54,136 bases of DNA from positions 1-54,136 of the forward strand of contig JBIOXZ010000086.1 of the NCBI GenBank assembly GCA_044869895.1, in the 5' to 3' direction. The position numbers and the translations under genes were made by a program. Under the pieces are notes generated by a model, which made no database searches, was not told the origin of the DNA, and saw only the letters and a program-made list of their open reading frames with translations. This stretch comes from Actinomycetota bacterium. Its GTDB lineage: Bacteria > Actinomycetota > UBA4738 > HRBIN12. Shown here one piece after another: positions 19,143 through 24,499 of the stretch. Positions within the stretch are counted from its first letter, which is position 1. Each line of letters begins with the position of its first letter.

Positions 19143-19817
19143 CTAGCCGCTCAGGTCCTCCCGAAGGTCAATGTCGCGAAGCGTGCTCGCATGCGGATCG
19201 AGGGGGTGCCATGTGCCCTCATCCAGCCCTGCCACCCGGAGAGCGGTGAGGAGCGCCCTGAGGCTCCGCTCCCCCCGACCGAGCAGCGCGTGCGACGCCT
19301 GGCGCGCCGGCTCCACCCGGAGGGCCACCGGGAGCGGTCGCAGGGTCCCCACGTGCTCCAGCGCCACAGCGTCCGCTCCGGACCTCCGGACCTGACCGAG
19401 CATCTCCAGAAGGACGGACGAGGACATGTCGGGCATGTCTCCGGCCGCGACGAGCGCGAGCTCGGTCTCGACGTCGGCCAACCCGGCGGCGAGCCCGGCG
19501 AGCGGCCCCCGGCCTTCGACCGGATCACGCGCCACGCGCAGGCCGGGACGGATGGGAAGATCCGGTTCCGGGCCGTGCGGGCCCACGACCACCACCACCT
19601 CGAGGCACACGTCCGACAGCCTGAGCACGGCGTGGTGCAGGAGCGGCGCGCCCCGGTAGGGCTCCCGCAACTTGTCCCGGCCGAACCTGGAGGACCGCCC
19701 CCCCGCCAGAACGATGCCGGTGACCGGATCGGGGCCCTTCGGGGTCAGCGCTCGGCCTCCGGCCGGGCCCGCTCGCGGTTCTGCACGAACTCGAAACCGA
19801 ACCGGCCCTTGATACAC
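19143..19817 (-). CDS. mobA: molybdenum cofactor guanylyltransferase; true start probably downstream of the listed GTG
   Basis: The sequence reads GIVLAGGRSSRFG.DK...PLL.H...VVVVG...RD...GPLAGL.AGL...LVAAGDMP. The first 24 codons overlap the upstream gene and use atypical A/T-ending codons (see finding). Confidence 0.75.
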   Translation of the reverse strand: MYQGPVRFRVRAEPRAGPAGGRALTPKGPDPVTGIVLAGGRSSRFGRDKLREPYRGAPLLHHAVLRLSDVCLEVVVVVGPHGPEPDLPIRPGLRVARDPVEGRGPLAGLAAGLADVETELALVAAGDMPDMSSSVLLEMLGQVRRSGADAVALEHVGTLRPLPVALRVEPARQASHALLGRGERSLRALLTALRVAGLDEGTWHPLDPHASTLRDIDLREDLSG

Positions 19818-20707
19818 AGGTGCCCCCGGGTGATGTCATGGTCGAGCGGCGAGGTCACCTTCACGATCGCGTTGTCCTGGACGTGGAGTTCGAGGTCGCA
19901 CCCAACCCCGCAGTACGGGCAGATCGTCTCCACCACGGTCTGGTCGGATTCTTCCCAGGTCCCTTCCCGCCGCATCTCGTGCTCCGACCTGAACATCAAT
20001 GCTCCGGTGGGACACACGCCGATGCAGTTGCCGCAGTACACGCAAGCTGAATCGGGAAGTTGCACGTCGAACTCCGTCGAGATCCGGGCGTCGAACCCCC
20101 GACCGGCCACGGCGATGGCGAACGTGTTCTGCGCGTCCACGCCGCAGGCCTCGACGCACTTGTAGCAGAGGATGCAGCGCGAGTAGTCCCGAACGTAGAG
20201 GTCGTTGTCGACCTTCACCGGCTGGCCGACGGTCTCCGCCGCCGCGCCGTCGGGAGCCGGGTGGTGACCGGGGTGGCGCGCGTCGCGCTCCCCGGCCGCG
20301 GCCGGCGGCGCGGCCTGCCCGTACCGCTCGGGCTCGGCCCCGTACGCACCGACCCACCGCCTGACGTCCGGCGACGCCAGCGAGAGGTCCACGGACGAAG
20401 AGAGGAACTCGAGGACGAGGCGCCGGGACGTGCGGACCCGATCGGAGTCCGTCACGACCTTCATCCCGGGCTCGACCGGACGAGCGCAGGCCGGCGCGAG
20501 GACCCGCGACCCCTCCACCTCGACGACACACACTCGGCACACGTTCACCGGCGTGAGGTTCTCCAGGTAGCACAAGGTGGGCGTGTCGATCCCCTCGGTC
20601 CGGCAGGCCTCGAGGATGGTGGAGCCCTCAGGTACCCGGACCGGCTTCCCGTCGATCTCCATGTCGACGAGCCGCTTCGGCGGTGCGAGGGAAACGACCT
20701 GGCTCAC
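19745..20707 (-). CDS. formate dehydrogenase Fe-S subunit, equal to the N-terminal half of an FdsA/FdhF-type alpha subunit (2Fe-2S, 2x4Fe-4S ferredoxin motifs, Mo-bisPGD 4Fe-4S cap)
   Basis: The 2Fe-2S motif is CYLENLTPVNVCRVCVVEV...APAC. The ferredoxin motifs are CILCYKCVEAC and CVYCGNCIGVCP. The cap motif is CPYCGVGCDLELHV...GHLCIKGRFGFEFV (compare E. coli FdhF CPYCASGC...LCLKGYYGWDF). The ORF stops right after the cap. The GTG start overlaps the stop of the NuoE/F-like gene (GTGA). Confidence 0.8.
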   Translation of the reverse strand: MSQVVSLAPPKRLVDMEIDGKPVRVPEGSTILEACRTEGIDTPTLCYLENLTPVNVCRVCVVEVEGSRVLAPACARPVEPGMKVVTDSDRVRTSRRLVLEFLSSSVDLSLASPDVRRWVGAYGAEPERYGQAAPPAAAGERDARHPGHHPAPDGAAAETVGQPVKVDNDLYVRDYSRCILCYKCVEACGVDAQNTFAIAVAGRGFDARISTEFDVQLPDSACVYCGNCIGVCPTGALMFRSEHEMRREGTWEESDQTVVETICPYCGVGCDLELHVQDNAIVKVTSPLDHDITRGHLCIKGRFGFEFVQNRERARPEAER

Positions 20708-22551: not shown

Positions 22552-22561
22552 CCGACCTCCT

Positions 22562-24499
22562 TCACTCTCCGCCCCCGCCGCCGGCAGCCTGCGCCGGCTG
22601 CTCGATCCGGTCGATCCGGATCGCACTGGCCTTGAACTCCGCCGTGCCCGACTTCGGGTCCCATGCGTCGATCGTCAGGGCGTTCGTATCCACGTCGTCG
22701 GGGAAGTGCAACGTCATGAAGGCCAGGCCGGGCCGGAGCGTGCGATCAACGTGCACCGGGGCCTCGATCTTTCCCCGCCGCGAGGACACGAGCACCCGCT
22801 CATCCTCCGTCACGCCCACCCGATCCGCGTCTTCCGGCGAGACGCACACCGCCTCCTTCCGCCGAAGCGGCGACGAGTACAGGCCCGACTGCACCCCGGT
22901 GTTGAACGAATCGAGGCGCCTTCCCGTCGTCAGCCGGATGGGGAACTCCTCGGACAGCTCGTCGACCGGCGGCTCGAAGGGAACGACGCTGAACGGGGCC
23001 GCGGCCCCCCGCTTCTGTGGATCCTCCTCCCACAACCGCGCGTGGAGGAAGGTGGAACCGGGGTCGTCCTCGTCGAGGCACGGCCACTGGATACCGTTCA
23101 TGGCCTCCAACCGTTCGTAGGTCATGCCGTGGTGCATCGGCGACAGCGAGCGCAACTCGTCCCAGGCCGCGTGGGGGGTGAGGACTCCCCAGTCCCTGCC
23201 GAGGCGCTTGGCCATCTCGGCGAGGATCCAGATGTCGTCCTTCGCCTGTCCGGGGGGCTCGAGCGCCTTGCGCACCCGCTGCACTCGGCGTTCGCTGTTC
23301 GTCACCGTCCCCTCGGTCTCGGCCCAGGCTGCGGCGGCGGGCAGGACTACATCGGCCATCTCCGCGGTCTGCGTCAGGAGGATGTCCTGCACGATCAGGC
23401 AGTCCAGGTCCTCGAGCAGATGCTTCGCCCGGCTCGAGTCGGCCTCGGAGGTGGCTGGGTTCTCTCCGATCACGTACAGGGCGGTGAGGTCGCCTCGTTC
23501 CATGGCCTCGAACATCAGTGACAGGTGCCAGCCGTACTTCGGAGGGATGGCGCAGCTCCACGCTCTCTCGAACCTCGCCCGGGCCTCCGGCATCGTCTGG
23601 ATGTCCTGGAAGCCGGGAAGCTTGTTGGGGATGGCTCCCATGTCGCCGCCGCCCTGGACGTTGTTCTGGCCCCGAAGCGGGTTCAGGCCGGATCCATACC
23701 TCCCCACGTGCCCGCACAGCAGGCCGAGATTGATCAGGGCCAGCACGTTGTCGACGGCGTTGTGGTGCTCGGTGATACCCAGGGTCCAGCAGATCTCCGC
23801 TCGGTCGGCCCGAGCATAGGCGTGCGCGAACTCCTCGATGACCTTGGCCGGCACCCCGGTCGCGCGTTCGCCCTCCTCGAGTGTCCAGGGCTCGACCGAA
23901 GCTGCATAGTCGTCGAACCCGGAGGTCCCAATCCGGATGAACGTCGGGTCGTGGAGCCCGGCGCGGATGATCTCGCGAGCCATGGTGTTCGAGAGCGCGA
24001 TGTCGGAACCAACGTCGATGCCGAGCCACACGTCGGCCCACTCGGCGGAAGTGGTCCGGCGGGGATCGACGACGTACAGCCTTGCGCCGTTCCGGATGCC
24101 CTTGAGGACGTGGTGGAAGAAGATCGGATGCGTCTCCCGCGCATTCGACCCCCACAGCACGATGAGATCGGTGTTCTGGATCTCCTCGTACGAACTGGTC
24201 CCGCCGCCTGCTCCGAACACCGTGGCCAGACCGACCACGCTGGGAGCGTGTCAGGTGCGGTTGCAGCTGTCGATGTTGTTGCTGCCCAGGACCTGACGCA
24301 TGAACTTCTGCGCGACGAAGTTCATCTCGTTCGTGGCCTTGGAGCAGCTGAACAGGCCAACCCCCTCGCCGCCGTTCCGCTGCCGCGCCGCACGCAGCCC
24401 TCCTGCGGCCCGGTTCAGGGCCTCGTCCCAGGTCGCCGCGCGAAGCGCACCGTTCTCGCGGACCAACGGCTCGGTGAGTCGGGTCCGGCCGTTCCCCAT
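22562..24499 (-). CDS. fdhA: formate dehydrogenase catalytic (molybdopterin) subunit, selenocysteine-containing. One gene of 645 codons read through TGA at 24253-24251; it lacks the usual N-terminal Fe-S cap
   Basis: Track ORFs 24251..24499 and 22562..24238 are in the same frame and separated only by TGA plus 4 codons. The joined sequence is ...SNNIDSCNRT-U-HAPSVVGLATVFGAGGGTSS..EIQNTD, which parallels E. coli FdhF ...NNVDCCARV-U-HGPSVAGL..G.GAMSN..EI.NTD. Downstream motifs are typical MopB/FDH (RGQNNVQG, TVTNSERR.QR). The strong SD GGAAGGAAGGAGG lies 8 nt before ATG 24499. Confidence 0.85.
24222..24238 (-). promoter_or_regulatory. bacterial SECIS apical hairpin for the fdhA UGA
   Basis: The reverse strand reads UGA-CACGCUCCCAGC-GUGGUC-GGUCU-GGCCAC. 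This is a 6-bp stem with a GGUCU loop that begins 12 nt after the UGA. The loop GGU-CUG codons are in the same register (codons 7-8 after UGA) as in the E. coli fdhF SECIS. Confidence 0.75.

Follow-up and report, generated by a model that had tools for sequence, protein, structure and literature searches.

Introduction

FdsABG(D), the NAD+-dependent molybdenum formate dehydrogenase of R. capsulatus and C. necator (PDB 6TG9/6TGA), combines a NuoE-like [2Fe-2S] module, a NuoF-like FMN/[4Fe-4S] module and a NuoG-like chain that carries the cap and the Mo-bisPGD centre. The NAD+-dependent tungsten enzyme Fdh1AB of Methylorubrum extorquens (PDB 7E5Z/7VW6) has a NuoE-NuoF fusion as its beta subunit, and its alpha subunit is a single chain of ~990 aa with the cap in cis. 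E. coli FdhF also has its own cap and lacks NuoG-, NuoE- or NuoF-like partners. In the four-subunit formate dehydrogenases of the HylCBA-FdhF2 type (Gottschalkia acidurici, Desulfotomaculum), a NuoG-like Fe-S chain is separate from the Mo subunit, which retains Fe-S cluster domains of its own (PMC5736913). The cut in these enzymes therefore lies upstream of the cap.

Here, we analyzed a locus in a 54-kb window (the whole stretch of DNA under study, 54,136 nt, from a soil actinobacterium) that encodes the same three modules as FdsABG(D), likewise with an FdhD/FdsC-type maturase encoded alongside. FdsA is one chain of 958 aa, whereas its counterpart here is spread over two genes, which lie in reversed order on either side of nuoEF. 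Unlike in FdsABG(D), NuoE and NuoF are fused, as in Fdh1AB, the His-ligated [4Fe-4S] motif is absent and the predicted metal ligand is Sec; the metal ligand of FdsA is Cys. The cut is downstream of the cap, in contrast to the upstream cut of HylCBA-FdhF2. A precedent for placing a Mo/W-bisPGD catalytic unit on two polypeptides is formylmethanofuran dehydrogenase (FwdB/FwdD), but its split takes off the C-terminal Molydop_binding domain, whereas the split here takes off the N-terminal cap. To our knowledge, all characterised Mo/W-bisPGD enzymes with a proximal [4Fe-4S] cluster carry that cluster on the catalytic polypeptide.

Results

The gene cluster

Read directly from the sequence, the minus-strand gene order is fdhD, the Mo subunit, the NuoE-NuoF fusion, the Fe-S/cap subunit and mobA (Table 1), and the order, strand and coordinates given in the initial annotation were confirmed, as was the strong Shine-Dalgarno sequence that it placed 8 nt before the Mo start. 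The fdhD product is a sulfurtransferase/chaperone that matures the formate dehydrogenase cofactor, with matches to PF02634 and, above cut-off, to NF001943. The mobA start is uncertain, as beginning at its sole canonical start codon gives a 73-nt overlap with the Fe-S gene. The Mo stop codon (TGA, 22564-22562) is followed by AGGAGG, which lies 5 nt 5' of the NuoEF ATG at 22551, and the NuoEF stop and Fe-S start overlap as GTGA (20707-20704). Because of this tight spacing, the GTGA overlap and the lack of any terminator-like site inside the cluster (in itself weak evidence), the five genes probably form one operon read as a single transcript. Outside the cluster, fhs adjoins fdhD in divergent orientation, and GcvT-like genes and metH also lie within the window.

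Table 1. Features of the formate dehydrogenase locus, with positions in the window
Feature	Position	Strand	Basis or remark
fdhD	24555..25409	-	PF02634 E=1e-68; NF001943 FdhD 310.5 bits vs cut-off 269
Shine-Dalgarno sequence GGAAGGAAGGAGG of the Mo gene	24508..24520	-	8 nt 5' of ATG 24499; read from sequence
Cap-less Mo/W-bisPGD catalytic subunit, 645 codons including one UGA	22562..24499	-	PF00384 + PF01568
In-frame UGA, codon 83, metal-ligand position (DSCNRT-U-HAPSV)	24251..24253	-	read as selenocysteine
SECIS hairpin GUGGUC-GGUCU-GGCCAC	24222..24238	-	fdhF-type, 12 nt 3' of UGA
NuoE-NuoF fusion, 615 aa, diaphorase subunit	20704..22551	-	PF01257, PF01512, SLBB, PF10589
Fe-S subunit, 320 aa, GTG start	19745..20707	-	[2Fe-2S], two ferredoxin-type [4Fe-4S], cap [4Fe-4S]
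Cap (FS0) domain, Fe-S subunit residues 257-310	19778..19939	-	PF04879 profile 2-55 of 55, E=3e-20
mobA-like molybdenum cofactor guanylyltransferase	19143..19817	-	PF12804 E=5e-33; TIGR02665 below cut-off

A catalytic subunit that lacks the cap

The Mo protein matched PF00384 (E=8e-69) and PF01568 (E=1e-24) and gave no match to the cap profile PF04879, which was also missing from all of its best 120 homologue clusters. Against TIGR01591 it scored 621.7 bits over profile positions 51-672, below the cut-off of 666.25, as expected from the absence of the N-terminal ~50 profile positions. Its PDB matches included HDCR FdhF (E=2.6e-147). It contains LNPLRGQNNVQG, an active-site motif of the RGQNNVQG type whose Arg we take to be equivalent to FdhH Arg333, and His84 adjoins the metal ligand at codon 83. 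Only two Cys occur in its first 82 residues and it contains no Fe-S motif itself, so an external proximal cluster would be needed. A cap is not hidden upstream of the ATG either, since the in-frame extension meets a TAG after 13 codons and contains zero Cys; no cap motif was seen in the upstream extensions of the Mo genes at 67 related loci.

Subunits carrying the cap and the diaphorase

The Fe-S subunit is the counterpart of the N-terminal part (~309 residues) of alpha subunits of the FdsA type. As first described from the sequence, it carries a [2Fe-2S] site, two 4Fe-4S motifs and the cap: we found a Fer2_4 domain at residues 12-88, 4Fe-4S motifs at C178-C188 and C222-C232, and a PF04879 match of full length, which identifies the terminal Cys motif as a true homologue of the Mo-bisPGD cap. 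The cap residues are C263, C266, C270 and C298, together with Lys300 (C-I-K-G), and the protein ends 22 residues past the fourth cap Cys. This design recurs among the best 120 homologue clusters, all of which are 295-392 aa long and end 11-45 residues past the cap C-x-K-G, and none of which contains PF00384. In 119 of them there are 16 or 17 Cys (23 in the remaining one), a number that fits four clusters with four putative Cys ligands each. The subunit gave no match to PF10588, the profile for a His-ligated [4Fe-4S] cluster, and the motif H-x3-C-x2-C-x5-C was found in 0/120 homologues.

The domains of the NuoE-NuoF fusion predict a [2Fe-2S] centre, an FMN/NAD(H) site and a [4Fe-4S] centre. It matched TIGR01959 (nuoF_fam) with E=1e-136 and, among other PDB chains, Fdh1B of M. 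extorquens (7e5z_B). The protein terminates directly after NADH_4Fe-4S (residues 526-605 of 615), and the domain search gave no match to Fer4 or to an extra C-terminal 2x[4Fe-4S] ferredoxin domain.

Break point of the alpha subunit

Two alignments locate the break. TIGR01591 positions 1-54 correspond to Fe-S residues 261-314 and positions 51-672 to Mo residues 5-629, and R. capsulatus FdsA (6tg9_A) aligns with the Fe-S protein over its residues 25-309 and with the Mo protein over residues 307-936. The split site thus corresponds to FdsA residue ~309 and to position ~51-54 of the Fdh-alpha profile. The single chain of Fdh1A likewise aligns to both halves, and in E. coli FdhF the cap motif C-x2-C-x3-C...C-x-K-G and RLKTPMIR flank the equivalent of the break point. 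As judged from these alignments, the alpha subunit is split cleanly at the boundary between cap and Mo domain, with the C-terminal half encoded first and NuoE-NuoF in between, and the initial proposal of a domain-boundary fission is borne out. That proposal also held that the cap must act in trans; the Mo gene has neither a cap nor an upstream extension that could supply one, and the cap would accordingly be provided to the Mo subunit by the Fe-S protein. The non-colinear order would fit an alpha-beta operon that was duplicated in tandem and then lost both its ends, or else a plain translocation.

A selenocysteine codon in the catalytic gene

The initial annotation took the Mo gene as one open frame and missed both the in-frame stop codon and the SECIS: 24499..22562 is not an uninterrupted ORF but contains TGA at codon 83, and this position is TGA in 67/67 related loci. 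Most metagenome gene callers cut at this TGA, and Mo homologues are accordingly often about 549-560 aa long. Among 59 distinct sequences, the hairpin 3' of the UGA is paired in 99.2% of cells compared with 92.6 +/- 0.8% in shuffles (0/500 shuffles reach the observed value). One pair, intact in every sequence, is C-G in 44 of them and G-C in the other 15, its changes falling at synonymous third positions, and the loop GGUCU is kept in 58/59. The element has the features of an fdhF-type SECIS, namely a hairpin ~11-12 nt downstream, G23/U24 in the apical loop and covariation, and it shares with E. coli FdhF the Sec-His active-site motif, the 12-nt spacer and a GGUCUG loop in the same register. 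Cultured Saccharopolyspora has TGC (Cys) at the metal-ligand position, and in its Cys-type gene the GGUCU loop is absent and two pairs are broken. From the conserved in-frame UGA and the fdhF-type SECIS that covaries at synonymous sites, the enzyme is a predicted selenoprotein in which the SECIS assists the reading of UGA 83 as Sec. Because none of selA, selB, selC and selD lies in the window, Sec decoding in the source organism rests on the conserved UGA and the SECIS. In one relative (locus L052), a tRNA-Sec gene adjoins the operon.

Conservation and distribution

We found 542 relatives in species-representative genomes, and homologues are 65-98% identical at the protein level along their whole length. 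The order Mo, NuoEF, Fe-S/cap occurs in 65 of the 67 related loci with enough flank, which come from at least eight phyla and many assemblies, long contigs included. The phyla with the conserved order are Actinomycetota, Acidobacteriota, Chloroflexota, Planctomycetota, Dormibacterota, Gemmatimonadota, Methylomirabilota and Vulcanimicrobiota, and cultured Saccharopolyspora species have the same order, as in the isolate genome of Saccharopolyspora antimicrobica. In the two exceptions, the neighbouring Mo gene is absent: locus L024 has a Fe-S/cap gene with neither a Mo nor a NuoEF gene within 7 kb, and L051 lacks the upstream Mo gene. At some Chloroflexota loci an unrelated gene lies between Mo and nuoEF, so co-transcription is not universal. 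We found no description of this split in PDB entries or curated HMMs and no paper describing the layout. The initial annotation had called the architecture unusual, which holds against characterised enzymes but not in genomes, given the number of relatives. Genes for oxalyl-CoA decarboxylase and formyl-CoA transferase adjoin the Saccharopolyspora operon; these and fhs in the window were counted as formate-related neighbours of a formate dehydrogenase.

Discussion

Overall, we consider it probable that the locus encodes a soluble formate dehydrogenase of the FdsABG/Fdh1AB kind that has three subunits, depends on Sec and is linked to NAD(P)+, its alpha subunit being made as two polypeptides with the cap in trans. 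Gene content, domain boundaries, gene order, the UGA and the covariation of the SECIS are seen directly, and the assembly of the complex, its electron path, its acceptor and its physiological direction are deduced from them, as is the single transcript. In the putative mechanism, formate would be oxidised at a bisPGD centre that contains Mo or W and has Sec 83 as a ligand, and the electrons would cross the subunit interface to the proximal [4Fe-4S] cluster of the cap at the C-terminus of the Fe-S protein. Their route would then lead through the two ferredoxin-type [4Fe-4S] clusters and the [2Fe-2S] cluster and on to NuoE-NuoF with its [4Fe-4S] cluster and FMN, where NAD(P)+ would be reduced.

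The oddity of the locus itself, and TGA-cut Mo products that can resemble a broken gene, might suggest an assembly error or a decaying pseudogene in which a once-fused alpha gene was scrambled and the TGA is an inactivating mutation. The comparative data already refute this reading, which we regard as virtually impossible: the order recurs at independent loci across assemblies, phyla, long contigs and an isolate genome, the TGA stands at the same codon in every related locus with a covarying SECIS, and the homologues are conserved over their full length. We also think it very improbable that the enzyme bifurcates or confurcates electrons, as a formate dehydrogenase of the HylABC-Fdh/HydABC kind that handles NAD(H) and ferredoxin together, as the initial annotation had considered possible. 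The best PDB matches of NuoEF are indeed HydB subunits of bifurcating hydrogenases (7q4v_B, 8a6t_B), and the Fe-S protein resembles the N-termini of HydA/HylA. However, the HydB alignments stop at ~518 of 599, and NuoEF lacks the C-terminal ferredoxin domain of HydB/HylB (HylB has extra [4Fe-4S] domains), so bifurcation is not supported. The C-terminal clusters of HydB have a role in bifurcation in the HydABC structures. The missing His-ligated cluster and the hosts, mostly aerobic soil lineages, also speak against it.

Equally improbable, in our view, is a vestigial, off-pathway cap comparable to N7 of complex I NuoG/Nqo3, with NuoEF/Fe-S serving as a general diaphorase and the Mo subunit working alone or with another partner. 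The Fe-S/cap genes at L024 and L051 would suit such a cap, but the cap Cys and the C-x-K-G lysine are kept in the tails at related loci and throughout the 120 homologue clusters that the cap pattern matched, the Mo subunit depends on a proximal cluster from outside, and the three genes are syntenic almost throughout. A further reading keeps the proposed enzyme and assigns it CO2 reduction to formate for formate-THF ligase in a reductive C1 route, which we judge unlikely, though less so than the preceding ones. It would account for fhs diverging from fdhD and for the GcvT-like genes and metH, and CO2 reduction is within the reach of Sec/W-type enzymes in this clade. Nevertheless, the NAD(H) couple is unfavourable to CO2 reduction, the Saccharopolyspora copy lies beside oxalate-to-formate genes that point to formate disposal, and no CODH/ACS or other reductive-pathway marker was seen in the window.

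For the preferred formate dehydrogenase with its cap in trans, we tentatively speculate on the order of assembly: the free, Sec-containing, cluster-less subunit might be folded and loaded with sulfurated bis-PGD by FdhD/MobA and only then dock on a pre-assembled NuoEF/Fe-S 'wire' that brings FS0. If so, the enzyme would be the first of the Mo/W-bisPGD type to have its FS0 on another chain and to need no FS0 for cofactor insertion. Its catalytic and electron-wire modules would then be separable by nature and might be exchangeable; the orphan Fe-S/cap genes of L024 and L051 hint at this.

A large natural family that supplies FS0 in trans indicates that the boundary between cap and Mo domain is separable. 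It offers a system for asking whether cofactor insertion depends on FS0, as well as a naturally occurring template on which modular catalysts for formate and CO2 could be based. Although it is widely distributed among phyla that dominate soils, the family is poorly annotated, its cap subunit being labelled 'HndD', 'YjgC' or '2Fe-2S iron-sulfur cluster-binding protein'. Because gene calling stops at the Sec codon, the Mo subunit scores below the TIGR01591 cut-off and the cap subunit goes under these labels, the family may be undercounted when formate metabolism or selenoproteins are surveyed. The Cys version in cultured Saccharopolyspora species makes experiments feasible.

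The alpha subunit is divided between two genes

The operon consists of five tightly packed reverse-strand genes (see table), in which the two halves of a formate dehydrogenase alpha subunit are encoded in permuted order around a NuoE-NuoF fusion gene (NuoEF), as the initial annotation had proposed. In Pfam and NCBIfam scans, the 320-aa Fe-S protein contained Fer2_4, two ferredoxin-type [4Fe-4S] motifs and a full Molybdop_Fe4S4 cap (profile positions 2-55 of 55, residues 257-310), and it ends 22 residues beyond the final Cys of the cap. The Mo protein contained Molybdopterin and Molydop_binding without the cap. 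Positions 1-54 of TIGR01591, the curated formate dehydrogenase alpha model, fell on Fe-S residues 261-314 and positions 51-672 on Mo residues 5-629; the full Mo protein scored under the curated cut-off. Alignment to solved structures matched residues 25-309 of Rhodobacter capsulatus FdsA to the Fe-S protein and 307-936 to the Mo protein, and sequence comparison placed the break on Escherichia coli FdhH between ...CLKGYYGWDFIND and RLKTPMIR. A hidden cap behind an alternative start of the Mo gene was looked for and none was found: an in-frame TAG occurs 13 codons upstream, and the intervening stretch has no Cys. Because the domain maps, the break point and the Cys-free upstream stretch agree, the split is confirmed; it is real, robust and richer than first reported.

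Coordinates of the operon, its sequence elements, neighbouring genes and related loci
Sequence	Feature	Coordinates	Strand	Remarks
Window	Five-gene operon	25409-19143	-	Sequence reading
Window	fdhD	25409-24555	-	FdhD above curated cut-off (NCBIfam scan)
Window	Molybdopterin-oxidoreductase (Mo) gene	24499-22562	-	GGAAGGAAGGAGG 8 nt before ATG
Window	In-frame TGA, Mo codon 83	24253-24251	-	Context DSCNRT-TGA-HAPSV
Window	SECIS hairpin	24238-24222	-	GUGGUC-GGUCU-GGCCAC, 12 nt past TGA
Window	NuoE-NuoF fusion gene	22551-20704	-	AGGAGG 5 nt before ATG; start 10 nt past Mo stop
Window	Fe-S gene	20707-19745	-	320 codons; GTG start overlaps NuoEF stop as GTGA
Window	Variable stretch of Fe-S protein	~20400-20200		Residues ~100-170, Ala/Pro/Gly-rich
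Window	mobA-like gene (putative)	19817-19143	-	GTG 19817 is the only canonical start; overlaps Fe-S gene end by 73 nt (19745-19817)
Window	S8 subtilase gene	17274-19058	-	Directly downstream of mobA
Window	Formate-tetrahydrofolate ligase (fhs)	25477-27165	+	Divergent from fdhD
Window	GcvT-family folate-binding protein	27443-28555	-
Window	GcvT-family folate-binding protein	35992-36885	+
Window	B12-dependent methionine synthase	50532-54134	+
Window	Phosphofructokinase-family genes	8334-10711	-	Tandem pair
Window	AIR-synthase-like gene	1197-2276		Adjoins thiE
L024	Fe-S/cap gene	7001-8011		Alone; no Mo or NuoEF within 7 kb
L051	NuoEF and Fe-S/cap genes	7001-7936		No upstream Mo gene
L052 (Limnocylindrales, Chloroflexota)	tRNA-SeC	1031-1128		Anticodon TCA; ~1.2 kb upstream of the operon's fdhD
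L057	S8 subtilase insert	2923-4836	-	Between Mo and nuoEF, opposite strand
L081 (Saccharopolyspora antimicrobica)	Cys-type operon	1279-6518

A Cys count of 16-17 was found in 119 of 120 homologues of the Fe-S subunit (best 120 clusters), which fits four clusters with four Cys ligands each, one [2Fe-2S] and three [4Fe-4S]. The motif for a His-ligated cluster was absent from all 120, and no cluster motif is present in the Mo subunit itself. The variable stretch of the Fe-S protein replaces the His-ligated [4Fe-4S] motif of NuoG/FdsA, and variation in length among homologues, from 295 to 345 aa, falls mainly there. Relatives could be aligned only from MobA residue ~32, which makes GTG 19817 a tentative start of the mobA-like gene. 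A promoter and terminator scan of the operon cluster gave nothing, either way.

Conservation of the split operon

Comparison of both halves with their relatives showed that the split form is kept. In the best 120 clusters of Fe-S homologues (295-392 aa), PF04879 is the last domain in all and the Molybdopterin domain occurs in none; the cap occurs in none of the best 120 clusters of Mo homologues, most of which are 549-560 aa long, their gene calls having ended at the TGA. With each species represented by one genome, a scan recovered at least 542 relatives. The best 80 of these come from MAGs labelled Actinomycetota, Acidobacteriota, Chloroflexota, Planctomycetota, Dormibacterota, Gemmatimonadota, Methylomirabilota and Vulcanimicrobiota, with one Chthonomonadaceae bin. 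Among 67 loci that have 4.5 kb or more of upstream sequence, 65 show the same-strand order Mo, NuoEF, FeS-cap, with median gaps of ~45 nt between aligned segments. Cultured Saccharopolyspora species have a Cys version of 635-640 aa, and the operon order is unchanged in S. antimicrobica. An assembly error is excluded, since the order is shared by the 65 loci and S. antimicrobica, and pseudogene decay is excluded by the comparative conservation of the operon. Exceptions include the incomplete loci L024 and L051: their operons may be dispersed, binning or assembly may have separated the genes, or the module may serve another partner. In a few loci of Chloroflexota, the Mo and nuoEF genes are parted by an unrelated insert, which in L057 is an S8 subtilase on the opposite strand. 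The occurrence of an S8 subtilase gene near the operon both in the window and in L057 may be a coincidence.

A predicted selenocysteine codon in the Mo gene

The Mo gene had been described as one open frame, which does not hold: codon 83, at the Sec/Cys metal-ligand position, is an in-frame TGA that had not been mentioned. TGA is found in all 67 related loci covering this codon. Across 59 distinct sequences, 99.2% of the SECIS stem cells are paired, compared with 92.6 ± 0.8% in shuffles, and none of 500 shuffles equals this value. One base pair, intact throughout, is C-G in 44 sequences but G-C in the other 15, a switch that uses synonymous third positions of one Val and one Ala codon; the GGUCU loop is present in 58 of the 59. 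E. coli fdhF, fetched by accession, also has a 12-nt spacer and carries GGUCUG at the identical register. In the Saccharopolyspora Cys-type gene, the codon is TGC, the loop is GGGCU and two pairs are broken. The single-sequence fold after the UGA could not be told apart from shuffles (z = 0.02), and the SECIS is visible only through comparative counts; within the window, Rfam gave no matches at gathering thresholds, and the Sec region had no blastn match in E. coli genomes. The Mo protein is a predicted selenoprotein because the TGA is conserved, the SECIS covaries, the register matches fdhF, the Cys-type gene has a changed loop and two broken pairs, and a tRNA-SeC gene adjoins the L052 operon. 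Neither a tRNA nor a recognisable sel gene was found in the window, and the AIR-synthase-like gene was rejected as selD, since it scores under all curated cut-offs and adjoins thiE.

Proposed working of the enzyme

The operon products include a NuoF-like FMN/NAD(H)/[4Fe-4S] module fused to a NuoE-like [2Fe-2S] module (domain scans and structure matches), a NuoG-like Fe-S chain, and a Mo/W-bisPGD site that carries Sec-His together with the arginine motif RGQNNVQG. These parts most likely make up a soluble, NAD+-linked formate dehydrogenase like FdsABG or Fdh1AB. We infer that neither the Mo nor the Fe-S half works alone and that the two assemble into an obligate complex. The first acceptor from the pterin would be the cap cluster of the Fe-S subunit, whose C-x-K-G lysine is conserved, and electrons would then pass via the Fe-S chain and FMN to NAD(P)+. 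The suggestion that the enzyme is possibly bifurcating is not supported, because NuoEF stops directly after the [4Fe-4S] domain, without the extra ferredoxin domain of HydB/HylB.

Formate turnover is indicated because fhs diverges from fdhD and oxalate-to-formate genes flank the Saccharopolyspora copy: in L081, the operon adjoins genes for oxalyl-CoA decarboxylase, formyl-CoA transferase and an ADP-forming acyl-CoA synthetase, neighbours suggesting that formate oxidation is linked to the breakdown of oxalate. Formate oxidation is predicted as the more likely direction. Together with fhs, two GcvT-family folate-binding proteins and a B12-dependent methionine synthase give the window a one-carbon context. 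Elsewhere in the window stands a tandem pair of phosphofructokinase-family genes.

Origin of the split and relation to known systems

A search of a representative library returned mainly fragments, with fused relatives at ~38-47% identity and none closer than ~47%. The short matches P0210, P0251 and P0260 are fused alphas cut at their own Sec codon. Three proteins among the nearest non-split relatives (P0225, P0269 and P0246, ~840-980 aa) were rejected as formate dehydrogenases; they have the Fe-S chain, cap and Molybdopterin without Molydop_binding, plus a C-terminal NuoE-like [2Fe-2S] domain, and are NuoG-NuoE-type fusions. The split looks like a fission rather than the independent recruitment of a cap, because the first ~309 residues of FdsA-type alphas match the Fe-S protein in linear order, down to the spacing from ferredoxin motifs to cap. 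The fission seems old, since no fused relative above ~47% identity was found. The explanation that Sec usage caused the split is weakened because fused Sec-type and split Cys-type alphas both exist. The gene order (Mo, beta, FeS-cap) could have come about if an alpha-beta operon was duplicated in tandem and then lost its outer pieces, or if the Mo part was translocated. The split form occurs in different phyla at 65-90% identity, which suggests spread by horizontal transfer. FwdB/FwdD, also among the closest known systems, are split at the other end.

FdsABG (6TG9), Fdh1AB, E. coli FdhH and the HylCBA-FdhF2 type are among the closest systems. However, the FdsABG/Fdh1AB family has a single-chain alpha and a His-ligated cluster, whereas the present system has a two-chain alpha and lacks that cluster. 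Fdh1B of Methylorubrum extorquens Fdh1AB (7E5Z) is also a NuoF-NuoE fusion, and the Sec and SECIS features resemble those of E. coli FdhH. In the HylCBA-FdhF2 type, the Fe-S chain is likewise separate, but the Mo subunit retains its own cluster domains (PMC5736913), which the present one lacks. None of the PDB matches of either half shows a cap-in-trans split, and a literature search that was not exhaustive found no account of a cap-in-trans formate dehydrogenase, although one may exist.

By its gene content, the operon is a widespread, misannotated and putatively Sec-dependent three-subunit formate dehydrogenase, the proximal Fe-S cluster of which would come from a different polypeptide. This is relevant to molybdoenzyme assembly and engineering, and to how genes of formate and selenium metabolism are annotated in soil bacteria. 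NCBIfam has no model specific to either half, and the cap subunit is labelled HndD, YjgC or '2Fe-2S iron-sulfur cluster-binding protein' in public homologues. For the Mo subunit, the majority of public gene calls end at the Sec codon, at a length of ~549-560 aa.
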